DNA from: an uncultured Acidobacteriota bacterium | GTDB taxonomy: Bacteria; Acidobacteriota; Blastocatellia; RBC074 | Direction: 5' to 3' | DNA length: 64,000 nucleotides | Assembly (NCBI GenBank): GCA_963796275.1 | Contig: CAWCKY010000006.1 | Coordinates: 2,784,001 to 2,848,000, forward strand | In this document: positions 37,455 to 54,811 of the stretch, in pieces | Layout: each line of letters starts with the position of its first letter | Numbering within the stretch: position 1 is the first letter of the stretch | Translations under genes and position numbers: made by a program | The notes under the pieces: model-generated | What the model was told of the DNA's origin: nothing | The model's input: the letters and a program-made list of their open reading frames with translations, nothing else | Databases searched by the model: none

Positions 37455-38716
37455 GTCAATTACCCGCCACTAAGCTCGAAGACTCACAATAGTGGGGGCT
37501 TGCGATTCGACTCTTAGAGTCGTCCGCGATTGGCTGATTGACGGCAGCCCTGCTCCGAATGTTGAGAGCAGCGTTGATGTCGGCGTTACGGCAGTGACCG
37601 CATTGCCGACATTTGAAAACTTTTTGAGATTGCCGGTTAACTTTAGAGATATGGCCACAACTGGAACATTCACGAGAAGTGCTACGCGGGTTCACGGTAA
37701 GCACTGGCACGCGCGCGAGCTTGGCCTTGTACTCAATAAAGCAGCGCAATTGACCGAACGACCAGGAATGCAATTCAGAACGTTTAGCCTTGCGAGCCCG
37801 AACCCTCGAACGAATGCCTTTCAAGTCTTCCAATGCAATCGCTCGATTCGTGCGTTTGGCTTTGTCTACGATCTGTTTGCTGATTTGGTGATTGATGTCT
37901 TTGGCAAAGAGCGACTCTTTTCTGCGTCTCTCACGCAATCGTCTCTTTGCGCTTTTGGTTTTCTTCGCTTGCAGCCGTCGCCGAAGCTTCAAATGTCGCT
38001 TTCTCAGATTTTTAGTGTGGCTACCGGAAAACGATTTACCATCCGAATCGGCGGCGATCCGGGCAATCCCGAGATCAATGCCGAGATAGTCATCCGGGTT
38101 ATACGGCGACTCTTCGACTACATTGACCGTCGCAAACAAGTACCATCGGCCTTTACGGTAGACCAGATCAGATTCACCTTGGCGGGATGCGAGCAGAATC
38201 TTTTCTCGCTCTCCACCAACAAACGGAATCTTCTGTCTGCCTGTGACAGTCCAGATAGAAACGTAGTTTTCGCCGTAACGAAGAATTCGATCATCGAAAG
38301 CAATCGAACCGTGCTGGTGGAAGGTTCGTTGGCGTTCGTGGTCGGGCTTATACGCATCAGCCACTTTAGCGATTACTCGAACGGCAACCTGAGCGGAAAT
38401 ATCGAATTGTTCACGCAGAGCAGAGTAAGCGAGTTTATGGAGGTGAAATTGGCCGAAGGTCTTATGCTCCCACGCTATGCGCGAGCACTCACAAGCAGCT
38501 GCATTGGCTCGCTCAAGCGTCTCTTTCAATGCGGCAGCTTGCTCTTTGGTCGGATTCAGTTTCAATCCTATCGTCAATTTCATGGAACGAATAATACCAC
38601 ACTGCATTCTATACTTGAAGAGATTTTCCGTGCTAAGTCGCGCGGTCTCAAAATTCCTCTCCATCCAAGCTCGCCCAGATGCTCGTCTATGGATGGAGTA
38701 TCCTTTTGAGGTTTAG
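37455..38716 (-). mobile_element. Non-autonomous IS200/IS605-family (IS1341-like) element carrying tnpB only
   Basis: Left-end hairpin CTCCATCC...GGATGGAG after TTCAT. Right-end CAAGCCCCCAC...GTGGCGGGTAATTGAC. No tnpA. Ends are inferred. Confidence 0.75.
37456..38583 (-). CDS. tnpB: TnpB RNA-guided endonuclease
   Basis: RuvC motifs GIDLG, ALEDL and NADINAA. Zinc finger CSSC/CRQC. Confidence 0.92.
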   Translation of the reverse strand: MKLTIGLKLNPTKEQAAALKETLERANAAACECSRIAWEHKTFGQFHLHKLAYSALREQFDISAQVAVRVIAKVADAYKPDHERQRTFHQHGSIAFDDRILRYGENYVSIWTVTGRQKIPFVGGEREKILLASRQGESDLVYRKGRWYLFATVNVVEESPYNPDDYLGIDLGIARIAADSDGKSFSGSHTKNLRKRHLKLRRRLQAKKTKSAKRRLRERRRKESLFAKDINHQISKQIVDKAKRTNRAIALEDLKGIRSRVRARKAKRSELHSWSFGQLRCFIEYKAKLARVPVLTVNPRSTSRECSSCGHISKVNRQSQKVFKCRQCGHCRNADINAALNIRSRAAVNQPIADDSKSRIASPHYCESSSLVAGN

Positions 38717-38869
38717 ATGAATAATCGCCTGTCACCGGTCTCCACTCCGTAAGATGAGATATCGCCTGAATCTTGAATCCATCCGTCGAATACCGCAAGA
38801 CCAGACCGGTAGATCTGAAAAAGTCGCCCGGTATTGAGCGATCATTTGAGTCTAATTAGAGGTGCCGGA

Positions 38870-39100
38870 TCAGTATCCCTTCTCACAAAAGTGAGCCAGA
38901 ACGCTTATCGAAAGAGTCGCCGAAACGAGCCGCGAACGATTTCCCTCTTTCGGTGAAGAGCTGGCATTGATTAACTTTTTGCGATAAGCCCGGGCCGCGC
39001 GGAAATGCCCATCTGCGAGCCGTGCTGATCGTAGCAGCAGACACTGGGTTACGCGAGAACGAGATGTTCACTCTGGAAAAGAGTGATATCGATTTCAGGT
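38870..39100 (+). pseudogene. Decayed tyrosine integrase fragment related to 61025-62344
   Basis: PFSQK*ARTLIERVAETSRERFPSFGEELAL and AHLRAVLIVAADTGLRENEMFTL..DIDF. Confidence 0.8.
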
Positions 39101-39247
39101 CGGGGGGCACATTACGTGCGAATGTCGCTAACTGGCGGAGAAAGACGGTCTGTCTTTATTGCGGCTGACAAAATATTACTCGTCACCATTTATATGGCTA
39201 AGGGGGTACACCAGTCTCAATCTGAAGTGAGATTTCTTCCGCCATTC

Positions 39248-39284: not shown

Positions 39285-39725
39285 ATGCGGATTAATTGGC
39301 CGGCGACAAAAAGAATGGTTCGACTTCATTTCGCCGTCTTCATCTTGTTGTGGTGGGGCGGACTGAATTGTCTTTCCGGCTGCCTGATTCCGAAGATAGG
39401 CGCTGACGGCGAAAGCCATTGTTCGATGGGCGGCGAGGGCGGAGATTGTTGTCATATCCAGGCCGGCGGCGAAGAATCGCTTTCATCAAAATCAATCAGA
39501 GCGCCTTCCACTTCAATACAATCTTTATCATGCTGTTCTCTCCTATCGCTTTCAGGGGATGTAAGTCGTGACGTGCGAGCCGTTGACGGCGCGCCTACTT
39601 CGGCGATATTGAGTCGAGCAGGATTCATTCCTGAAAGCGGGCCTCGCGTCCAATTTCCTGACCGTTGGGTGCGCCTCCCTGATCGCGGAGGAACTCACCT
39701 CCTTCACTGTGTCTTCCTGATTTAG
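39285..39725 (+). CDS. Cys/His-rich membrane-anchored hypothetical protein (metal-operon leader type)
   Basis: Hydrophobic N-terminus, CLSGC, HC...DCCH, SCC, C-terminal THLLHCVFLI. Confidence 0.65.
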   Translation: MRINWPATKRMVRLHFAVFILLWWGGLNCLSGCLIPKIGADGESHCSMGGEGGDCCHIQAGGEESLSSKSIRAPSTSIQSLSCCSLLSLSGDVSRDVRAVDGAPTSAILSRAGFIPESGPRVQFPDRWVRLPDRGGTHLLHCVFLI

Positions 39726-39812
39726 AAAAAAAGTTTGCACGCGGAATTCTTATCAGCGCCAGTATGCTCACTGGTCTATGGGCAAACTTTATCTAAAATA
39801 GGAGATACAACA

Positions 39813-39992
39813 ATGAAATCCGTTAAAACATTCGTCATCGCTTTAGTCCTCGGGTTGGGCGTCGTTGTGTACGCGGCCGATGGTTCACAGGCCTCAACGC
39901 GGTCTTGCTGTCTGACTGGGGCTGACTGCTGTGTCGCCGGCGCAAGTTGCTGCACGTGCAGATTGTGCTGCGCGACTCACGAAGCCAAGTGA
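39813..39992 (+). CDS. Small secreted Cys-rich (metallothionein-like) protein
   Basis: AGGAG RBS, signal peptide, SCCLTGADCCVAGASCCTCRLCC. Confidence 0.75.
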   Translation: MKSVKTFVIALVLGLGVVVYAADGSQASTRSCCLTGADCCVAGASCCTCRLCCATHEAK

Positions 39993-40010
39993 GCTAATCG
40001 TTAATCAAGA

Positions 40011-40043
40011 GGGGCGGGGGCGGACATCGTCCGCGCCCGCTCC
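40011..40043 (+). other. Strong intergenic GC hairpin
   Basis: GGGGCGGGGGCGGAC-ATC-GTCCGCGCCCGCTCC, with no U-tract. Confidence 0.5.
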
Positions 40044-40079
40044 GCGTTCAACGCACAATCAATCCAAGGAGAATTCGCA

Positions 40080-41507
40080 ATGAAACTACTCGCCACCGCG
40101 ACGCTTGGCGCCGTCTTCTTATCGCTCGTAAACTTGGGCATCGGTCTTGCCCAGGTAAAGCGTGTGGAGATGAAGATCGACGGTTACCTCTGCGGCAACT
40201 GAGTGTTCAACATCCAGAAGGCCGTGAGCCGTCTAAACTTCGCACCGAAACTCAATGAGATCGAAATCACTGACATCAAAAACGGTATCGGCGTGTTCAC
40301 GCCGAAGGCCGAGAAATCCGTCTCCTATGTGGCGCTCAAGAAGACATTGAAAAAGGCCGGTTATACGCTCGCTTCCGCGAAAATTACCGTGAACGGAAAA
40401 CTCGCGCGTGACGCCTCAGGATGGGCGCTACTGTCTGACACATCTGGTCAGCGCTTTGCTTTGGATGGAGAGGGCGTTGAACTGGCTCTACCGGACGCCG
40501 CCCCGAACGCGCAAGTAGAAGTCACTGGCGATTGGAAGTCGGCAGGGGAAGGGAAGGAAGTCATCTCTCGTTTGCCCGCAAAGAAGGCCGGGCGATCTCA
40601 CAATGAAAATGGAGATAATCCTGTCCAAACAGAATACGTCGATGTAACCTGCGGCGGTCCCATGGAAGCGGGACCGTTGCCGGTTGCTCCCATAAGGACG
40701 ACGAGCCCGGGGCTGACGGTTTATCGCGGCGGCGCGTTCACGCCGCGTTACATTTTTGTGCGGCAACAACTAGGAGGGCTGAAAGTTGATCGTAATATTA
40801 TGCTCTTGGACTTCTCCTACACTCCGACGCCGAAGCTTCTGGTAGAGGCTGAAATCCCGTTCACGTGGATTTCATTCAAAGAAGGGGCGACATCCGGTAG
40901 TGACGAGGGTATAGGTAACATCATCATTTCGGGCAAGTATCGCTTCTTTCGGCAGGTCGAGGCGTGGGGGGACCGCCAGGCAGCGCTGCGCTTCGGCTTG
41001 GAGCTTCCGACCGGGAAGGATGACGCTCCGAGCGAACAACAACTCCATGCGCCGGCATTTATACGCCAGCAGCTTTCGCCGATCAGCGGCGGCCTCTCTG
41101 CACACATTGACCTGACTTACTCGCAAGCAAAAGGCCGGTTCATTTTCGGGGGCAACGTCGAAGGCGTTCTACGCTCCGAGCGAGATGGGTTCCGGATGGG
41201 GAACGAACTTCGCATCAATACTGACCTTGAATACGTGCTCTTCCCGCGGAAGTATGACCGTCCGGGTGGGGAAGTGTTCGCCATCCTGGAATCAAACTTC
41301 ATCCGCCGCGGAACCGGGCGCGTCGCCGGCGCGCCCGTGCCCGGGAGTCGCTCTACCGAGTATTACCTTGCGCCGGGAGTCCAATACGCGATGCGTCCGA
41401 GGTTCGTCATCGAAGCTAGCTATCAAATTCCGGTGGCGCGTAACGCCGGGTCTCAAGCTCTCCGCGTCGAGCGGGGCTTACTTGTTGGCGTCAGAATACT
41501 GTACTGA
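40080..41507 (+). CDS. Candidate selenoprotein: signal peptide, HMA domain with CxxU, and outer-membrane transporter-like beta-barrel
   Basis: AAGGAG RBS, then ATG 40080 MKLLATATLGAVFLSLVNLGIGLA-QVKRVEMKIDGYLCGN-TGA(40200)-VFNIQKAVSRL, in frame with ORF 40203. SECIS-like hairpin follows. The C-terminal part has GIGNIIISGKYRF, GLELPTG and ends in Y. Confidence 0.8.
40203..40245 (+). promoter_or_regulatory. Putative bacterial SECIS element
   Basis: AGAAGGC-CGTGA-GCCGTCT hairpin. The loop starts 20 nt after TGA with G at loop position 2, and the outer GTG/CAC can pair. Confidence 0.55.
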
Positions 41508-41516
41508 GGTGGACCG

Positions 41517-41996
41517 ATGACAGGAACGGCAATTACCGCAATGCTCCTGGTTGTGTTCTCTGCGCTCGTCCTGGGACAGGGCGAAAAGCCTGCTCCTAAA
41601 TTGAAGCTCAGGGATGTTGAGGGGCGCGCTCTGCGTCTGAGTGATTACAAGGGCAGAGTCGTGCTCCTCAACTTCTGGGCGACGTGGTGTGCGCCGTGCC
41701 GGGTCGAGATGCCTGACCTGGTGAAGTGGCAGCGGGAGTACAAAGGCAAGGGCCTTCAGGTTATCGGCGTCACGTACCCGCCGGAAGAATTAGCCGAGGT
41801 GCGTGAATTCATCAAAAGTATCAGAGTCAACTATCCCGTTGCTCTGGGCGAGGAACAGACGAAGGCAATGTTTGATGAAGGGGACATTCTTCCTGTCACC
41901 GTGGTGATTGATAAAAAGGGGATGATTCGTGAAGTCATCCACGGAATCATTTTCCCGGAAGAGTTTGAACATAAGGTGAAGCCGTTGCTTCGTTAG
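41517..41996 (+). CDS. TlpA/ResA-family thiol:disulfide oxidoreductase, exported
   Basis: LLNFWATWCAPCRVEMP, LP.T.VID. Confidence 0.92.
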   Translation: MTGTAITAMLLVVFSALVLGQGEKPAPKLKLRDVEGRALRLSDYKGRVVLLNFWATWCAPCRVEMPDLVKWQREYKGKGLQVIGVTYPPEELAEVREFIKSIRVNYPVALGEEQTKAMFDEGDILPVTVVIDKKGMIREVIHGIIFPEEFEHKVKPLLR

Positions 41997-42417
41997 ACGT
42001 CTTGCTGTTCGCCATGTTCGCAATCTCATGAGAGGGTGAGGAAGAGGGCGCGATATACCGCGAGCAAGCGCGGCATATCGCAATATTAGTCCAGATTTCG
42101 CCACCAAATATTTTTAACCAGAGATTCATCAACGGTATAAAAACGATTTTCTTGATTAGCCTGAATAGTTTATCTCAGAAATCGACGACAGAGATCACGT
42201 TTGGTCAGAGAATTGCCTCATACAACGGGGGTAATTTCTCGTCTTTTATCCATTCTCAAAACAGTGCGGCAATAGGATTCTGGCGGTGATGGTTTGATCG
42301 GATGCGCCTCTCAGTTCAGAAACTGCTTTGTAGACCTGATTGTCGCTTCCAACATTAGCATCTACGAGGCCTGGGCGCCCTAACCAGATTGTATGATTTG
42401 AAACCGGGGGTTTGACA

Positions 42418-45400
42418 ATGAAGATGGCCTGTTTCCTTTTACTCATTGCGTTTTCAACAATAAGTTTTGCGCAAAGCAACTATGTAACGATTGTCGGAAC
42501 CGTCTACGACCCGCAGAGCCGGTCTCTCCCGGGCGCGAATGTACAGATCACCTCGGCCGGCACACAGGCAATCCGTAAAGTTGTCAGTAATGAATTGGGA
42601 ATATACCGGATCACTGGTCTTCTGCCGGGTGAATATGAACTCGAGGTTACAGTCACGGGCTTTGCTTCCGTAAAGCAATCCTTGCGTCTTGAGGTCGGCC
42701 AACAGTTGACGCTCGACATTAATCTTAAGTTGGCCTCCGTTACTACCACTATTGAAGTCGGTGCGGCCGACGTTTTACGCACTACAGATTCCAGCGTCGG
42801 CGAGGTCATTGAGCCGGCCGCCATTCGTAATTTACCGCTCAACGGGCGCATGCTGATCGATCTCGTACTAACTGTGCCGGGGGCGCATCTCAGTCACGGC
42901 GCGCAGGCCGGTGATATGAATCCCTTGTATTGGCGGCCCGGACAACGTTCGTCGGTCAGTATCGGTGGAAATCGACCGAACGCGAACTACTTCCTCCTAG
43001 ACGGGGCGACCAATACCGATCCGACATTCAATACTCTGAACCTGAGCCCCTCGCCGGACGCCGTACTGGAGTTCAAGGTCCAGACCGGCAGTTATTCCGC
43101 TGAGATGGGCGGCGCCGGCGGCGGACAGATAAATATCGTTACCCGCTCGGGCTCGAACCAATTTCACGGTACTGTCTACGAATTCCTCCGCAACAGCGCG
43201 TTCGACGCCCGATCCTTCAACGAGATGGAATCAGGTAATCATCTCGTCCAAAACAATTTCGGAGCCTCGCTAGGCGGCCCCATCGTGTCCAATAAGGCTT
43301 TCTTCTTTCTTAACTATGAGGGACTGCGGCGGACGAATGCGATGACGATGGCGCAGACCGTGCCGACGGAGATGGAGGTGATGGGCGATTTCAGCATGAG
43401 CGGAACGATGATCTACAACCCGTTCAGCTCTCGGCCGAACCCGAACTTCGATTCTTCCAGGCCGATCGGTCCCACGAATTCACAGATCATCCGCGATCCG
43501 TTCCCGGATAATATGATCCCGGAAAATCTGCTCAATCCCGTAGCCGCGAAATTTCTGCAAAAGTATATGGTGCGCCCGAATATGGGGATGGACATGGGGA
43601 TGATGATGATGGGCGGGTGTGGGATGACGATGATGGGAGCTCCGACGGTTGTTGGAGGCGGCGTAGATTGCAACAACTATCTCGATGTGCGCAATGCGCG
43701 GCATGTCACGGACCAGGGTACGGCCCGCTTCGATTACAACTTAACCGGCGGAGACAGCCTGGCAGCGCGTTATTCATTGAGTAAAGAACGTGGATCTATT
43801 CCGCAAAACCTGCCAGGGTTCGGCGCATTCCACGATAACTTTTCGCAGCACGGGAGCGTCTCCTGGAACCATATCTTCAGCCCTACCGTGGTGAATACGG
43901 CATCGATCACGGTTTCCCGCCTTGCCATGCACCGGTCTTCCGAAAACAGTGAGTCGAACGACATCATCTCTGATTTGGGGATACAGGGTGTTGGCTTCGG
44001 TGGTAAGGGGGCTTTCGGCGCTCCCTGGTTCAATGTGCAGGGCTATTCGGGCATGGGCGACACATTCGCGGCCACGCCGATGCGCGCCTGGGATACGATT
44101 CTTGAACTCCGCGACCACCTGAGCTGGCAGCGCGGGCGGCACAGTCTTAAATTCGGTGGAAGCTATCGGCACTTCATATGGCCGATGTGGGGCTTCTTCC
44201 AGAACCGCGGCTATTATCAATTTACAAACGGATTCACGACTCAAACGGCGACCAACGACGGAACGGGCTCTGCTCTGGCCAGTTTTCTGTTAGGGCTGCC
44301 TGCAGTGAAGCAACGCCAGGCCGGGATCCCCCAGATGCAGCTCCGTCAATGGTATGCAGACGGTTTCGCCCAGGATACTGTTCAACTCACCCGCACGACG
44401 ACGGTCGTGGTCGGACTCCGCTATGAATACATGAACCCTTTGCGGGATCTGAAATACACGAACACCAATCTCACCTTTGAAAACGGAACGCCGTCGGTTT
44501 TCATCGGCGGCCAGCAAGGATTTCCCGAGGGGTTGATGTATGCGAAGCGGAGCAACTTCGCCCCTCGGATCGGGATCTCACAAAACATCCCTCGCTATGG
44601 CATCGTGATCCACACTGCCTACGGCATTTTCTATACGCCGGTGGATATGAACACATGGTGCAACCAGCGCCATAACGTGCCATTTGTGTTTCCGGAGACT
44701 CAGCAGAGCGACAATTTTATCCCGGCGATAAACGGGTTTGATTTCGCGCCGGCCGCGCTCGGCAGGACCACGGTCAGCTTCGCGGCTTTCGATCCGCATG
44801 CACCTTCGCAGTACATCCAGCAATGGAGCCTTTCGGTGTCCAAGAGTCTGGGGCGTGAAACCACGCTCGAGGTCGGATACCTGGGAGCGCGTGGATTGCA
44901 TCTGCAACGATCGCACTTGATTAACAATGCGCCGCCTGGCCCTGGAGCGCTTGGGCCACGCCGTCCGTTCAGGACGCTCAGTTTCCTGCCGGGAATGGAG
45001 CTGCCGTCGGACATCACGGTCATCAGTACTACATTTCCCGTGAGCGGGATAAATTTGCTTGAGAATACTGCGAGAAGCTGGTACGACGCGGGTTATGCGA
45101 ATATCAGGCGACGGTTCTCTAAAGGGATGAGCCTTCTGGCTAATTACACCTGGTCGAAGAGTCTGACGGATGCGCCCGACTTCCGCTCGCCGATGTTCGA
45201 ATCTGCCATTCCGCAGGACAACAACAACCTGTACGCTGAGAAGGGACTCGGCTGTGACATCCGCCACCGCTTTTCGCTGAGCGCTGTCTTCGATCTTCCA
45301 GGGGTAGGGAAATCGGGCAGCTTGTCGGCAATCACAAAGGGCTGGCTTCTCTCCACCATCTATCAGGTTCAGAGTGGATTCCCGTTCACCGTCTCCGTCT

Positions 45401-45792
45401 TTGGCGACACGGCGAACGCCGGAACGCTGCTCGGCGAAAATCCCATTCGGGCCAATTATACGGGACAACCGATCTTCGACGAGGGCTCGCGCACCGCGGA
45501 CCGCTGGCTCAATCCGGCTGCCTTTGCCGTCCCTCCGGCTTTTGCGTTCGGAAATGTTGGACGGAATACGGTCGTCGGACCCGGAATGCAGACGCTCGAT
45601 CTGGCCATGACGCGAGAGTTCAACATCACGGAAAAAACAAAGTTCCAGTTCCGGGCGGAGTTTTTCAACGCACTCAATCATACTAACCTGGGGACGCCTG
45701 GCCGGTTCGTGAACACGCCGCAATTCGGTGTCATCACTGAAGCCGCGACTCCCGGCCGCCAGATTCAATTCGGCGCCCGTATATCGTTTTAG
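42418..45792 (+). CDS. Acidobacterial Oar-like TonB-dependent receptor with a Met-rich insert
   Basis: Carboxypeptidase-regulatory domain, LPLNGR, EFKVQT..YSAE.G, NFAPRIG, RQIQFGARISF. Confidence 0.9.
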   Translation: MKMACFLLLIAFSTISFAQSNYVTIVGTVYDPQSRSLPGANVQITSAGTQAIRKVVSNELGIYRITGLLPGEYELEVTVTGFASVKQSLRLEVGQQLTLDINLKLASVTTTIEVGAADVLRTTDSSVGEVIEPAAIRNLPLNGRMLIDLVLTVPGAHLSHGAQAGDMNPLYWRPGQRSSVSIGGNRPNANYFLLDGATNTDPTFNTLNLSPSPDAVLEFKVQTGSYSAEMGGAGGGQINIVTRSGSNQFHGTVYEFLRNSAFDARSFNEMESGNHLVQNNFGASLGGPIVSNKAFFFLNYEGLRRTNAMTMAQTVPTEMEVMGDFSMSGTMIYNPFSSRPNPNFDSSRPIGPTNSQIIRDPFPDNMIPENLLNPVAAKFLQKYMVRPNMGMDMGMMMMGGCGMTMMGAPTVVGGGVDCNNYLDVRNARHVTDQGTARFDYNLTGGDSLAARYSLSKERGSIPQNLPGFGAFHDNFSQHGSVSWNHIFSPTVVNTASITVSRLAMHRSSENSESNDIISDLGIQGVGFGGKGAFGAPWFNVQGYSGMGDTFAATPMRAWDTILELRDHLSWQRGRHSLKFGGSYRHFIWPMWGFFQNRGYYQFTNGFTTQTATNDGTGSALASFLLGLPAVKQRQAGIPQMQLRQWYADGFAQDTVQLTRTTTVVVGLRYEYMNPLRDLKYTNTNLTFENGTPSVFIGGQQGFPEGLMYAKRSNFAPRIGISQNIPRYGIVIHTAYGIFYTPVDMNTWCNQRHNVPFVFPETQQSDNFIPAINGFDFAPAALGRTTVSFAAFDPHAPSQYIQQWSLSVSKSLGRETTLEVGYLGARGLHLQRSHLINNAPPGPGALGPRRPFRTLSFLPGMELPSDITVISTTFPVSGINLLENTARSWYDAGYANIRRRFSKGMSLLANYTWSKSLTDAPDFRSPMFESAIPQDNNNLYAEKGLGCDIRHRFSLSAVFDLPGVGKSGSLSAITKGWLLSTIYQVQSGFPFTVSVFGDTANAGTLLGENPIRANYTGQPIFDEGSRTADRWLNPAAFAVPPAFAFGNVGRNTVVGPGMQTLDLAMTREFNITEKTKFQFRAEFFNALNHTNLGTPGRFVNTPQFGVITEAATPGRQIQFGARISF

Positions 45793-48781: not shown

Positions 48782-49777
48782 TTGGAATATTATTTCAGCG
48801 AGATGAAGCTTCCTTCGATCACGGTCGGCGAGATCAAGAAGTTCGCGATCTGGCTGTCTAAGATTCCCGCTCGCAGCATTATTGTTGAAGATGATAATGC
48901 AAAATTGGTTCTGAATATCAAGGAGAACGGCGGCCAGAGGAGTATTGAGTCCATCAATCGAGCGGTTGAACTATTGAGAACAGTGCTCAATTATGCGGTC
49001 GAGGAGAAGATACTCCGAGAGGAACAGAATCCTTTCTCGAAGAAGAAGGCGAGATCATTAATCGACAGACGTGCCGAGTCAAAGCGCGAGCAATTGCCGA
49101 CCTTCGGCGAAGAGATGGCGTTGCTCAAGGTTTGTACTGGAGATCGCGCTCATCTACGAGCAGTCCTCATTATCGCTGCTGATTCCGGTTTGAGAAGGAA
49201 TGAACTCTTTACTCTTTCATGGAAAGAGAAGGACATCGACTTTGAAAATCGGCTGATCAGACTCAGAGCTATCAACGCGAAATGGAATAAAGCAAGAACG
49301 ATCCCGATGACGCAGCGTGCTTACGAAGAACTGTTGAAACTCAAAGAGCAGTATGGCGATCATCCATCGGGCCTTGTGTTTGGGGGGATTAAAGAAGTGA
49401 AAAGATCATTCAATACAGCCTGTCGCTTGACGGGGATTGAAGACCTCCACAAACACGACCTCCGGCACGCATTCGTCACGCGCTCAATCCTGGCAGGCAT
49501 ACCACCGGCTATGGCTTTGAAGGCCAGCGGCCATAGTTCGGATGAATGGAAGCGATATCTCAATGTGACACCGGATATGCTTCATGATTTGTTTACGCCT
49601 CTGGAAGGCCAGGAAAGCGAGGTTGTCAAAGCTTATGGATTTGAAGTGATGCGCCAGTTGACAGAGGCGCTAATGGGATATTGGAAGACAGGGGGAAACG
49701 GCGCATTTTTCCAAGAACTGCGTGCCAGAGTTGAAATGCCAACTGGATCAGGTCAACGCCAGGCGCAAATGCCATAA
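48782..49777 (+). pseudogene. 5'-truncated tyrosine integrase
   Basis: SGLRRNE, HDLRH, GH, RY. Lacks the N-terminal ~108 aa of the 61025 copy. Confidence 0.85.
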
Positions 49778-50311: not shown

Positions 50312-50726
50312 CTTATCCACTCGAATTCAAACAAAAATTCGTCTATCAGGAGATAGAGCGGGGGATTTTCATTCCGCTTACGCTTGTCTATGGAGCGATA
50401 TTACCGCCTGCGGTGCAAAACTCGATACTGGAGCGGACTTTTGTTATTTCAGCCGTGAACACGCCGAAGAGATCGGACTGCAGGTCGAAGAGGGAACTAT
50501 GCTTCGCGTAGAAACAAACAGGCCTGAGCAGTCGATGATTTTTTACGGGCACGAGATCAAAATTCAAGCCCTTGGATATGAAATCGAGACGACAGTCTAT
50601 TTCTGGGAACACCATCGCTTACCGCTCAATTTGTTGGGGCGCGCTGGGTGGATCAATAAATTCAGACTCGCCCTGATTGAACACGATCTGGAATTGTATC
50701 TGTCACATCACGATGAACAATCCTGA
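50308..50726 (+). pseudogene. Retropepsin-like aspartyl protease, copy 1, frameshifted near 50400
   Basis: LDTGA and LLGR motifs. One base shorter than copy 2. Confidence 0.75.
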
Positions 50727-50891
50727 ACAATGAGGGGAGGAGCGCGTATCACGTCTGATATGCCGAACGCTGACGCGCGCCGAGTATGACAGAGGGAAAA
50801 TTGGAAGGATGACTGCAACTGTTAGAGAAAAATTCGACCTGCGCAAGTATTCTCGGCTGGTGTCCAAAGTCGCGCCCCTCGTGATCGAGAA

Positions 50892-51428
50892 GCGCGCGCG
50901 CGCGTCACCGCGGGATTCGCGAACGATGTTGATGCCGTGAACCAATAAGCGGCGGTGATGTAAGCGCCAACGGCATAAGGAGCTGCATCGGAACGCCGCC
51001 GCGTCACTCCCCAAATGACCGATAGAAGCCCAAAGGTGGCAACAAACTCACTGAACATTTGTGCTGCGCCGCCCCGCGCATGGAGTGCAACTGAAAAGAG
51101 GCGCTCATCGAACATCAGGTGGGCGGGGTAGCCACCCCTACGAACGCGCCACATACTTGATCTGCAATATACGACGGAACCTCGCGCCATCGAATGCCGC
51201 CCTGTGAGGCGTCAGCGAGAGTTACTGCCGGGTTGAAGTGAGCTCCGGAGATAGGCCCGAAGGTCAGGATGAGAGCAACCAGCGCTGCGCCAGTCGCCAG
51301 GGTTGGCGAGTAACGCGATGGCGACATTACCGCCGGCCAGTCGTTCCCATGATTCCGGAACCGATCACAGTCGCCAGCAGCAGCGCCGATCCCATAGCCT
51401 CCGCGACACTTCGCCGAATAAGACTCAT
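50892..51428 (-). pseudogene. MIP/aquaporin of the arsenic-operon type, frameshifted and 3'-truncated
   Basis: VIGSGIM, SGAHFNPAVT, AYWFTASTSFANPAVT over several frames. ATGA-coupled to arsN2. Confidence 0.8.
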
Positions 51429-51901
51429 CGCTCGATCCTGTGCTCCTCAGGCTGAATGTCGACCTTCATTAAAGCCGCCGAGGAGCAACGCGGCAGCCGC
51501 CATTCCGGCGATTGTGCGAGGCGTTCGTCGTAGTCCTCACGAACTGTTACTGAGAATCCGAATTTCTTCTCGAAGAAATCCCTAGCGGTGGTCGTCAACA
51601 GTAGAGCTTCGCTGATGCCTTGCCGTGCAGCATCCTGAAGAATCGCCTCTGTCAGTCGAGTTCCGAGACCAGACCGCTGAAGCTCCGGTGTGACGGCTGC
51701 CGACCGCAGCAAGCCAAGTCTACCGTGCCGCTCGATCCCGGCGCAGCCGATCAGACGACCCTTATTGTCTCTGGCGATGAGGAAGCCACCGAGATGTTCG
51801 GCTACTCCGTCAGGAGGCAGATCGACGGTATTAAGCAGCGAAAGAATTTCCTCAAGGTCTGAAACTTCCGCCTTTGAGATCATGACTTGTGGTGATTCCA
51901 T
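51425..51901 (-). CDS. ArsN2-like GNAT N-acetyltransferase
   Basis: LP.DG, GLLRS.AV, G.G..L, LLTTTA..FF, C.SA..M. Confidence 0.8.
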   Translation of the reverse strand: MESPQVMISKAEVSDLEEILSLLNTVDLPPDGVAEHLGGFLIARDNKGRLIGCAGIERHGRLGLLRSAAVTPELQRSGLGTRLTEAILQDAARQGISEALLLTTTARDFFEKKFGFSVTVREDYDERLAQSPEWRLPRCSSAALMKVDIQPEEHRIER

Positions 51902-51979
51902 TACTGTACGCAGTTATCAAGCGATCTGTAAGCGCGCCAAGCCGCAGCATGCGGTTTCCCTCTCGAATGCGAAAGACGT

Positions 51980-53017
51980 TTACTTTAGTTTGTTGTCCAA
52001 CTCCAGACGTCGATGAGCCTGCATCAAGACACAGAGCATGAGGCGTCCGATGTCATCGCGTCGCTCAGCGTATTTCGCAGCCTCAAACTCAGCGCCGTCA
52101 TACTCCTTCGGGTCGGCGTATGGCGCCGAGATTCTTTTGACAGCTCCCTTAACAATCGGACATTCGGCGTCCGCTTGATTGCAAACCATAATGGCAGCAA
52201 AACCGCTCTGGGGATTATTAACGTCGGAGTAAATCTTCGAGAACTCCAAAGTCTCCAGTCCCGTTCCCCACCGGATTCGGTAGATCGGATTTGCTTCACC
52301 GGAACTCCCACGGGAAGCTTCCTTCCCTGATGGCTCCACCTCGACGCCGATCTCCTTGAGAGTCGCTACTGTCCTCGGGTTGAACGCGCTTGGCGTTGTG
52401 CCGCCGCTGTAGAAGTAAATGTCCGGCAGCCCGTAATAGGCTGCGGCGATGTTGCCCATCGTCGAGCCCAGGATGCTACGCCGAGAATTGCCAGTGCAGA
52501 CGACGATGACAGCCAGGGGCTTGCCGGGCTGGTAGTTCGTGCTGATCCAAGCTACCAACTCGTCCGCCGCCGCGCGGTGGCGCTCTTCGATCAGATCGAA
52601 CTGAGTGGTAAGCAGATCGGCCTGACGCCGGACCTTCAAGAACATATCTTCGCGGGAGCGTGGTGTTTTTTCATTTAACATGCGTTCCATCTCCGGCAGA
52701 GTGATGTAGTCATTGGCGCTTGCGAAGCTCTGGAAAACACGTTTCTCAAACACCTCGCTCACCAGATTCCAGGATAGTCCCGCCTTCTTGGCTCGTAGAG
52801 TTTCGCCCAAAGTGGTTTTGAGCTGGCGGTCTTTGCTCGGTGTCAGCGCATGTGGCTCCGCGTACAGGTGCGAAAACCATAAAGCCGTGACCAGCGGGTT
52901 GCCAGGCTTACCCGCTGGTTGAATTTTAACCGCCCGAGCCGGCATTTGTGTGGCGAGAATACAGAGCGTGACAGCGCCAGCTAAGATAATCCCTCGTCGA
53001 ATCATGCCGTTGGTCAC
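51980..53017 (-). CDS. LMW-PTP/arsenate-reductase-like protein with a long N-terminal extension and putative signal peptide
   Basis: VCTGNSRRS P-loop, SGGT..AFN, C..AD..CP...GA..R, DPK..D. Confidence 0.75.
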   Translation of the reverse strand: MTNGMIRRGIILAGAVTLCILATQMPARAVKIQPAGKPGNPLVTALWFSHLYAEPHALTPSKDRQLKTTLGETLRAKKAGLSWNLVSEVFEKRVFQSFASANDYITLPEMERMLNEKTPRSREDMFLKVRRQADLLTTQFDLIEERHRAAADELVAWISTNYQPGKPLAVIVVCTGNSRRSILGSTMGNIAAAYYGLPDIYFYSGGTTPSAFNPRTVATLKEIGVEVEPSGKEASRGSSGEANPIYRIRWGTGLETLEFSKIYSDVNNPQSGFAAIMVCNQADAECPIVKGAVKRISAPYADPKEYDGAEFEAAKYAERRDDIGRLMLCVLMQAHRRLELDNKLK

Positions 53018-53130
53018 TCAAAATAAACAGGATCGATTGCCGCCTAACTTCAGATAGGCCGCCACCACCTGGATTCCCGGAATGATTTCGACTCCGCGTC
53101 TCCGAAGCTTAAATCATTCCGGAATATTGT

Positions 53131-53607
53131 TTAACTCTTCGTGATACCGACGAAGCCTGGTATCGATGCGCCACAGCACTCGCCGATTGCCGCCCCGCTT
53201 TCCTCGGGCAGGTTGTCTTCCAGGACGACGAACACCTCCCACTCATTGCCATCAGGATCGGTGACCCAAGTCTTGTCCTGAATCGCGTAACAGCAGTTGG
53301 TTTGCATCTCGTCGCGGGTATCGAGTCCCGCTATCGCCCATTGCTCCCGCATTGCAAGGACGTCATCGGTCGAAGCAACCTGAATCCCCATGTGGGAGAG
53401 TGCGCCGCGTTCGTTGAAAGATATTTCATTCAGGGCGAGGTTGAGTGGCGGGTTTTGCACATCAAACTTGGCGTAACCCGTCCTGACCTTGCTCGGCTCA
53501 ATCCCCAGCATCTTTTTGTAAAACTCCACGCTTTGCTCGACGTTACGGACGTTGAGAGCGACATGAGCCTTGATCGTCTGCACAGTTCTGGTATTTTTAG
53601 CGTTCAC
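53131..53607 (-). CDS. ArsI/CadI-family VOC metalloenzyme
   Basis: HVALNV, GYAKF...PPLN, SHMGIQV, CCYA.QDK.W..DPDGNEWE. Confidence 0.88.
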   Translation of the reverse strand: MNAKNTRTVQTIKAHVALNVRNVEQSVEFYKKMLGIEPSKVRTGYAKFDVQNPPLNLALNEISFNERGALSHMGIQVASTDDVLAMREQWAIAGLDTRDEMQTNCCYAIQDKTWVTDPDGNEWEVFVVLEDNLPEESGAAIGECCGASIPGFVGITKS

Positions 53608-53665
53608 CTTTGTCTCCTTCTACGCTCTGATTATCGAGCGTGTCTTCAGACTAGCAGTGAAAAAT

Positions 53666-53685
53666 ATATGCGTCAAGGCGAATAT
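53666..53685. promoter_or_regulatory. Probable ArsR operator
   Basis: ATATGCG-TCAAGG-CGAATAT inverted repeat between divergent arsI and arsR. Confidence 0.6.
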
Positions 53686-53710
53686 GTTTTAGTGATATCA
53701 TGATTGTGTT

Positions 53711-54110
53711 ATGAGCCGAGCAAATAAGAGTTTCGACCTCGAAAAATTCTTCGTCGCGCTTTCCGACCGCAATCGCCTACGCTTGATTAACCTGATGGGG
53801 GACGATGAGGTCTGTGTGTGCTTCTTCAGCGAAATTCTGAAGATGCCGCAGCCGAGGGTCTCGCGGCATCTCGCCTACCTGCGCCATGCCGGGAATAGTG
53901 GTGGCCCGTCGGGAAGGGAAATGGATGCACTACCGCCTCATTCCTCCGACCGACGAACATGCTTCGCATATCCTTCAAAACGTGCGCGAATATCTTTCGG
54001 GTAATCGAGAGATGCAGCAGGATCGGGCGCGCCTGATCAATATCTGCTGCGCGCCGTCGCTTCCGGTGCAGTTGCAAGGCGCGCCACTCCCCGCAAGTTT
54101 ACAGGTCTGA
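53711..54110 (+). CDS. arsR: Arsenic-responsive ArsR, frameshifted near 53890
   Basis: EVCVC, QPRVSRHLAYLR, then GIVVARREGKWMHY and a C-terminal CC in the next frame. Confidence 0.8.
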
Positions 54111-54194
54111 GCGGACATTAGTTTCGGCGTGAAAAACCGGCCGCCGGGTGGTCAGAGAAATCGAGGTTGAAGAAATTGTTGGATCAAATCTGAC

Positions 54195-54718
54195 ATGAAA
54201 TATCACACCAGTTTACTGAGCTTTATCCGGCGCCGCGTCGATGTCGCTGATCTTGCCGAGGACATCCTTCAAGACGTTTTCATCAAGGCCCATTCAAGGT
54301 TGGACACGCTGGCGCATGCGGATCGGGTGCAGAGCTGGATTTACCAGATCGCGCGCAACACGATCATTGATTATTACCGCACCCGTAAAAGCACCGAGCC
54401 GCTTCCCGATGAAATTCCGGAGCGGCTGGAACAAGGAGATCAGGGATGGCGGGAGTTGGAAAATGCGTGGCGCCAATGATCGAGATGCTTCCCACAGGCT
54501 ACCGAGATGCGCTAATGCTCTCCGAGGTCGATGGCCTGCCCCTCAAGGAGGTGGCAGAGCGGCTGAACCTCTCACTGCCCGGCGCGAAATCGCGTGTTCA
54601 GCGGGGTCGAGAGAAGCTTAAAAAAGTATTTCTGGATTGCTGTCATTTCGAGTTCGATTGTCGCGGGAAGCCGATCGACTGGTCTCCAAAAAATGGTTGC
54701 AAAAGCATCTCCTGCTAA
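54195..54718 (+). CDS. SigZ-like ECF sigma factor, frameshifted near 54460
   Basis: AEDILQDVFIK, WIYQIARN..ID.YR, then LP..YR.AL, GAKSRVQRGR, CC. Confidence 0.8.
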
Positions 54719-54811
54719 ATTTGTTTCTTCAGCCTTGCATCTTTTCACTATCTCTTTCGTCTCTCCGGTTGGCGGGCGATTAATCCCGTTAATATCGAGG
54801 TACGAAGGGAA

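Follow-up and report, generated by a model that had tools for sequence, protein, structure and literature searches.

What are the five co-oriented genes at positions 39285..45792 (+ strand) of a 64,000-nucleotide (nt) stretch, hereafter the window, of contig CAWCKY010000006.1 (GCA_963796275.1; Acidobacteriota; Blastocatellia; RBC074), and do they form the single envelope metal-handling system that was proposed for them from the DNA letters? The analysis supports well, by comparative criteria, that gene 3 is a hidden selenoprotein in which an in-frame TGA codes for selenocysteine (Sec), and the real unit around it consists of a leader, an optional Cys-Cys (CC) peptide, the Sec-HMA-barrel protein and a TlpA, the TonB receptor being probably a separate unit. 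The observation behind the original prediction was confirmed, and its interpretation as a whole is partly supported. All five open reading frames (ORFs; 146 amino acids (aa), 59 aa, 475 aa, a TlpA and a TonB-type receptor) lie on the + strand where they had been placed, the 59-aa protein has its four CC pairs plus one further Cys, TlpA starts 9 nt after gene 3 as described, and the receptor, expected about 420 nt further on with a Met-rich insert, follows after 421 nt with an insert that is Met/Cys-rich. The idea that every gene carries soft-metal ligands fails for TlpA, whose CAPC is a redox motif and not a metal ligand.

39285..39725, + strand: gene 1, probable leader (upstream sensor) ORF of 146 aa, with a hydrophobic N-terminal segment, Cys clusters and a conserved C-terminal tail
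39813..39992, + strand: gene 2, 59-aa exported Cys-Cys peptide, four CC pairs and one Cys; optional
40080..41507, + strand: gene 3, selenoprotein of 475 aa when TGA is read as Sec
41517..41996, + strand: TlpA/ResA-like periplasmic thioredoxin (WCAPC), constant partner in the class
42418..45792, + strand: TonB-dependent receptor of the carboxypeptidase-regulatory/OMP_b-brl_4 type, loosely linked neighbour

The source genome (G000) comprises 9.46 Mb in 7 contigs and is 94.7% complete, and the nearest named homolog records come from Blastocatellia and other Acidobacteriota. Export of the locus proteins was read by eye from hydrophobic N-termini. For comparison the selenoprotein head was searched against 301 genomes of the class (threshold E 1e-10), of which 51 matched; 40 class regions, picked for longer flanks, were drawn from 39 of the 50 other carrier genomes, and a set of close loci (44 for TlpA, 35 for the receptor) overlaps these regions, the counts not being additive.

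Gene 3 as a Hidden Selenoprotein

Two features of gene 3 bear directly on the reading of its TGA:

40200..40202, + strand: Sec codon 41 (TGA), in the motif C-G-N-U
40214..40236, + strand: hairpin resembling a selenocysteine insertion sequence (SECIS), just 3' of the TGA

The alternative is that the TGA is a true stop, leaving gene 3 as a 434-aa barrel protein or a pseudogene, and database annotation fits this in starting past the TGA: the public copies are 434 aa long, cut at the TGA, and the best matches are without the first 41 residues. However, the signal peptide and the first Cys of CGNU both precede the TGA, and the codon is widely retained: TGA stands at the Sec position in 37 of the 40 class regions (the other 3 having TGC, Cys) and in 69 of the 70 motif-bearing loci recovered by homolog searches, a set that includes near-duplicates and this window. 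The sole TAA among the 70 belongs to a second copy in the source genome that is truncated by an insertion sequence (IS). Homologs with Cys at this place, either fused or N-terminal, occur in the representative library (P0129, which is fused, P0257 and P0167). The genome itself encodes selA, selB, selD and the tRNA-Sec (selC), all above cut-offs, and selA is found in 49 of the 50 other carrier genomes, a figure that stands without a measured background rate.

The RNA signal gives a mixed picture. Every pairing of 22 homologs shows 100% synonymous identity at codons 46-51, compared with 57% on average over the gene, and this stretch ranks first of 467 codon windows; the three-pair core of the SECIS stem is kept in 37/37 TGA forms and in 1/3 Cys forms, and the hairpin has the same spacing as the one after the selD TGA. 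On the other side, and in keeping with a true stop, its folding energy is ordinary (z about 0.1-0.6) and its covariation is not above shuffles. Despite these null tests, the synonymous constraint and the invariant stem together indicate, at the level of sequence, that a bacterial SECIS is present, and the TGA as a stop was rejected as extremely improbable. Elsewhere in the same genome there is another candidate in-frame TGA with a hairpin (G000:C6 near 795057, - strand) and a Sec-containing SelD (G000:C7:302329).

Predicted Architecture of Gene 3 and Its Split Relatives

The mature protein is predicted to carry a small metal-binding-type head and a large outer-membrane part, which can be laid out as follows:

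40080-40151, + strand: signal peptide at the N-terminus of gene 3
~40152-40367, + strand: HMA domain with CGNU, mature residues 1-72
~40368-40571, + strand: OB-like beta domain, mature residues 73-140
~40590-40679, + strand: disordered linker, mature residues 147-176
~40683-41504, + strand: plug and 12-strand COG4313/FapF-type barrel, from the AlphaFold2 model and structure matches

The AlphaFold2 model, built from an alignment of 143 rows, has a predicted local distance difference test score (pLDDT) of 90.5 and a predicted template modelling score (pTM) of 0.74. In the model the barrel has 12 strands and an inserted N-terminal segment, as in channels of the COG4313/PF13557 kind; it matches FapF (5o65) with Z 26.0 and a root-mean-square deviation (rmsd) of 2.5 over 248 aligned residues, and the COG4313 channel Pput2725 (4rl8) with Z 25.5 and rmsd 2.2 over 243, the latter alignment beginning at the Pput2725 plug, and its PF13557 match is above cut-off. 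The head is modelled with a ferredoxin-like fold and a CxxC-type motif in its first loop, which places it among HMA domains; in structure it resembles those of Cu/Zn ATPases and chaperones at Z 9-10, with CopZ and MerP among the matches, and its PF00403 score of 22.7 bits falls just below the cut-off of 24.8. The OB-like domain has a weak DUF5818 match (E 0.011) and weak OB-fold structure matches. The whole can be described, from the model, as an HMA(CxxU)-OB head that a flexible linker joins to the plug of a COG4313-type barrel. Since in Pput2725 the N-terminus reaches into the barrel lumen from the periplasm (PMC4493636), the head of gene 3 is, by analogy, presumably periplasmic.

Outside the class the same parts occur as separate genes. 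Among 20 hand-picked regions with an HMA relative, taken from 37 other genomes of the phylum with a match, the HMA(-OB) and barrel genes lie at most 2 genes apart in 17, and fusion in the class together with this adjacency elsewhere in the phylum argues that head and barrel act together. The HMA proteins of these split forms are exported and have the motifs UxxU (12 regions), CxxC (7) and CxxU (1), and the neighbours read by eye include an NHL-repeat protein in about 14/20 and a MerR-type gene in 5/20, with some forms beside MerR/MerT-type genes. Two-Sec split forms (among L228-L247) bear two successive hairpins.

The TlpA Partner

The downstream thioredoxin matches PF00578 and PF08534 above cut-off and scores below the cut-off of the named TlpA equivalog (87 of 230 bits); with its thioredoxin fold, WCxPC motif and export it is a TlpA/ResA-type protein. 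It directly follows the selenoprotein gene in 35 of the 37 class regions that have downstream sequence (3 of the 40 are without it), in 44/44 close loci, and in the two class regions where it is missing another TlpA lies <2 kb upstream. The 33 downstream TlpAs cluster in the tree (2 changes vs 12.9 when shuffled); since paralogs on long branches are interspersed with them, their monophyly is not established. In B. diazoefficiens TlpA keeps the cysteines of ScoI and CoxB reduced ahead of Cu binding (PMC6669012), and the source genome encodes DsbD. A second recurring pair occurs near the module, made up of a TlpA of ~300 aa whose N-terminal domain contains Cys and a ~175-aa protein without Pfam or NCBIfam match (L014:5802-7256, L161, L163, L165, L181, L191 and G000:C6 near 2.33 Mb); some of these pairs are headed by a leader ending LRI.

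So constant a TlpA would also suit a redox relay, in which the CxxU site is catalytic and electrons passing from DsbD through TlpA to Sec reduce or cleave a channel-borne substrate such as an organometal, a metalloid or an oxidant. Most CxxU selenoproteins are thought to be redox proteins (PMC13188914), the barrel family has been linked to hydrophobic substrates, the barrel here is without soft-metal ligands, and the locus has ars-type neighbours, all of which fits such a relay. The HMA fold, whose solved relatives bind metal, speaks against it, as do the split relatives, most of which are without an adjacent TlpA and some of which lie next to MerR/MerT-type genes (by eye), and we regard the relay as fairly unlikely.

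The Probable Upstream Leader

From its Cys spacing and its pairing with the Shine-Dalgarno (SD) region of the next gene, gene 1 is better read as a regulatory leader than as a metal-handling part. The pairing lies in the following element:

39708..39809, + strand: mRNA hairpin between the leader's last codons and the SD region of the next gene (z -3.8; 1/200 shuffles as stable)

Through this hairpin the end of the leader ORF can block the ribosome-binding site of the gene behind it, and such pairing (mean probability >0.5) recurs at 44/55 leader junctions regardless of which gene lies downstream; the median duplex z is -2.1, and some of the starts are probably mis-picked. The last core Cys stands 60-63 residues from the C-terminus in 17/19 members of the leader family, the intervening sequence being divergent, and a mean ratio of nonsynonymous to synonymous substitution rates (dN/dS) of 0.36 (55 pairs, 11 close homologs) points to purifying selection. 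Gene 1 has no Pfam (E up to 0.1) or NCBIfam match, and its neighbours in the Atlas are unnamed clusters. Related leaders head Met-rich outer-membrane (OM) protein and RND genes; in the source genome a leader hidden Markov model finds only the two module copies, and a looser pattern finds two other leader-type ORFs.

This anatomy, namely first gene, export signal (by eye), fixed Cys spacing and SD-shielding stem, is that of the DUF2946 leaders. In CutF, metal-induced stalling unfolds the SD-shielding stem (PMC9973294; 10.1101/2025.02.05.636593), and CruR has a fixed CxxC-RAPP spacing (PMC9426467). Gene 1 is without the RAPP/PPP motif, ending PDRGG...CVFLI, and without a DUF2946 (PF11162) match, which is absent in 4 related leaders too (E up to 1), RAPP having been seen only in another leader type (L171); because of this it is treated as CutF/CruR-like in its working and is not filed as DUF2946. 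From its sequence, gene 1 is a probable CutF/CruR-type regulatory leader rather than cargo.

The sign of such regulation matters, as CruR heads a TonB transporter operon that is repressed by Cu (PMC9426467). By the same token the module could serve scavenging under scarcity, importing a needed metal such as Cu with a CruR-like leader that switches on at low metal. The Met/Cys-insert receptor, which adjoins the module in the source genome and in 3 others of the 18 that have it, would suit this, and the MerA score below, which speaks against mer-type Hg routing, is in line with it. The SD-occluding hairpin, however, is CutF-like, the neighbours are mostly of efflux or detoxification types and the receptor is usually located elsewhere, so that scavenging appears unlikely.

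The Cys-Cys Peptide and the TonB Receptor

The CC peptide is putatively a periplasmic metal buffer. It is under purifying selection (mean dN/dS 0.21; 55 pairs, 11 close homologs), and its first and fourth CC pairs vary among homologs; it has no Pfam family, a weak sub-cutoff NCBIfam match to the signal region only, and Atlas matches <0.9. It lies directly upstream of the selenoprotein in 8 of the 40 class regions and is cleanly lost in some close loci. Between genes 2 and 3 there is a strong GC hairpin (window 40011-40043; region z -3.7), possibly a processing or stability element.

The receptor carries the other metal-suggestive feature of the locus:

~43579-43672, + strand: conserved Met/Cys insert of the receptor

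In the full form of the original prediction the receptor belongs with the other four genes to one system. Its insert is present in all 19 ortholog rows caught by the pattern, and the receptor does adjoin the module in four genomes (G000, G627, G592 and G649) and in 3/35 close loci, at one more of which (L055) its first 32 residues stand at a contig end. Yet receptor orthologs occur in 18/301 class genomes, of which 12 have no selenoprotein match and 6 hold both genes, 2 of these 6 on different contigs; among the class regions it adjoins the module in 2/40, those of G592 and G649, where it is in divergent orientation, and the 421-nt gap after TlpA contains hairpins and terminator-like sites. 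Because the receptor is adjacent in only 2/40 and 3/35 loci, a five-gene unit is unsupported, and we consider it quite unlikely; the receptor as a core part was rejected. It is metal-suggestive in its own right, with P1B-ATPase or RND genes nearby in 4/13 fetched loci (L196-L211), and is not a fixed part of the module. As to the synteny called for across Acidobacteria, TlpA is near-constant in the class, a leader-type ORF lies within 900 nt upstream in 20/40 class regions (within 4.5 kb in 24/40), and the CC peptide and the receptor are not constant.

Genomic Context

Members of seven metal-gene clusters (P1B-ATPase, MerT/HMA, CDF and Csac_0668-type, and three labelled by eye, namely Met-rich OM protein, MntP-like and PCYCGC-like) lie near 13/40 class regions vs 39/4675 16-kb windows of the source genome, a weak control that consists of one genome, with families chosen post hoc and related genomes that are not independent. 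With RND, MerR and ArsC added (ten clusters) the count becomes 15/40. Together with the constancy of TlpA this supports the proposal that the CxxU protein and TlpA are the basis of an envelope module with a link to metals. A Met/His-rich exported protein with a barrel-like C-terminus and without Pfam/NCBIfam match is often found in the selenoprotein operon (L159, L160, L162-L164, L171, L176).

In the window, an IS605/TnpB-type gene, an integrase-like remnant (by eye, without Pfam match) and a phage integrase stand on the two sides of the module (37456-39110 and 48782-49777), which suggests a mobile island. Further on, window 50700-54720 holds a decayed ars-like cluster of MIP fragments, GNAT, LMWPc-like, glyoxalase, and frameshifted ArsR-like and ECF sigma ORFs. 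The second copy of genes 1-3 (G000:C1:90806-92520; L001:6804-8557), which has TAA as its Sec codon and a gene 3 interrupted by a Mutator-family transposase, adjoins MIP, LMWPc and methyltransferase genes of ars type, so that both copies of the module in this genome are near ars-type genes. The promoter scan was at chance (4 found vs 4.6 expected). Mer-type Hg uptake was rejected, MerA not being above cut-off in this 94.7% complete genome (best 373.7 of 454.45 bits).

Proposed Mechanism

In the model that we favour, and to which we give slightly less than an even chance, the module would serve detoxification: a Cys/Sec pair placed where an outer-membrane channel opens into the periplasm would trap soft metals and be recharged by TlpA, with the leader gating the operon. 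The head would sit in the periplasm at the channel mouth, where TlpA, fed by DsbD, would keep the Cys/Sec pair reduced and so able to bind metals that cross the outer membrane, namely Cu(I)/Ag(I) or species of Hg(II)/As(III); the bound metal would be retained, leave through the barrel, or pass to a periplasmic buffer, for instance the CC peptide. The nascent leader would sense periplasmic metal by its Cys clusters, which would alter ribosome behaviour at its 3' end, open the hairpin and turn the operon on under metal stress, as with CutF. The TonB receptor would be a metal-related gene in its own right, from an island of the same sort. What the model says on topology, on the ligand and the direction in which it moves, on the substrate of TlpA and on sensing by the leader is inferred.

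Several observations weigh against this model. Those COG4313 channels that have been characterised are associated with hydrophobic molecules (PMC4493636), and no Met, His or Cys is invariant in the barrel (the best is a His, at 59/101), in contrast to a path dedicated to ions. The head is placed in the periplasm by analogy, and a TlpA-like gene adjoins only 1/20 split forms (by eye). A leader was not detected within 4.5 kb in 16/40 class regions, gene 1 departs from DUF2946 leaders in its missing motif and family match, the sign of its regulation is not readable from sequence, and that of CruR is opposite to that of CutF (PMC9426467). Finally, 25/40 class regions have none of the ten metal-gene clusters near them, and the neighbourhood control has the limits given with it.

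A bolder version would have the COG4313 pore admit neutral metal(loid) species (organomercury, methylarsenite, Cu/Ag complexes), which the tethered Cys/Sec HMA head would capture or reduce in the periplasm, with a dedicated TlpA recycling it and proline-free sensor leaders, a new class whose last codons are the anti-Shine-Dalgarno (anti-SD), switching the module on; we hold it to be speculative and rather unlikely.

Relation to Known Systems and Significance

The module is built from known kinds of parts. The NF041115 UxxU protein and the NF045683 MerT/CopZ fusion likewise have an HMA fold with Sec at the place of a metal-binding Cys, whereas gene 3 has CxxU, not UxxU, and is exported and fused to an OB domain and an outer-membrane barrel; its membership of NF041115 was rejected (17.6 of 95 bits, no UxxU), and even the split UxxU relatives score only 35-48 bits against the same cut-off. 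COG4313/SphA/Phenol_MetA_deg channels (Pput2725) and FapF share the 12-strand barrel, with an N-terminal segment aligned to the plug; gene 3 adds the tethered HMA-Sec head and metal contexts, while described COG4313 members have been linked to hydrophobic molecules (PMC4493636) and FapF to amyloid secretion (entry titles). CutF (R. capsulatus) and CruR (B. pertussis) are, like gene 1, first genes with an export-like N-terminus, a fixed distance from Cys to C-terminus and a short intergenic SD-shielding stem, but the anti-SD of gene 1 is part of the ORF itself, within its last codons. The TlpA-ScoI/CoxB system likewise has a periplasmic thioredoxin keeping metal-binding cysteines reduced; here TlpA is proposed to act on the Cys/Sec HMA domain of an outer-membrane protein. 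MerP/MerT also set a periplasmic HMA domain beside a membrane transporter, and gene 3 has a weak MerP match, but the transporter here is an outer-membrane barrel and MerA stays below cut-off. Copper TonB transporters of the OprC type are Met-rich receptors too (PMC8610252), the receptor here being of a different class (OMP_b-brl_4).

The selenoprotein family is unlisted among the 119 families of Table 1 of PMC13188914 (2026), which in its accessible part has HMA-type and two outer-membrane selenoproteins and no HMA-COG4313 fusion. NCBIfam of June 2026 gave sub-cutoff matches only, and nothing matching appeared in the accessible text of the SAO preprint or of the deep-Sep, BSepDB and ExtI papers. 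No description of the fusion or the operon was found in a literature search whose reach stopped short of the BSepDB entries and of Haft and Tolstoy 2025 (mSystems) on selenoprotein neighborhoods.

The locus adds an unlisted selenoprotein family, truncated at UGA in public databases and carried by 51/301 genomes of a soil Acidobacteria class. It links the COG4313 channel, hitherto tied to hydrophobic molecules, to a metal-binding domain, which makes passage of soft metals through the outer membrane testable. The leader family, in which the Cys spacing is fixed, a proline motif is lacking and the anti-SD sits in the last codons, would bring sensing of the CutF/CruR type into the Acidobacteria. 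If the reading with a pore and a selenium catalyst were true, a widespread lineage of soil bacteria would have a new way of detoxifying metals at its envelope.

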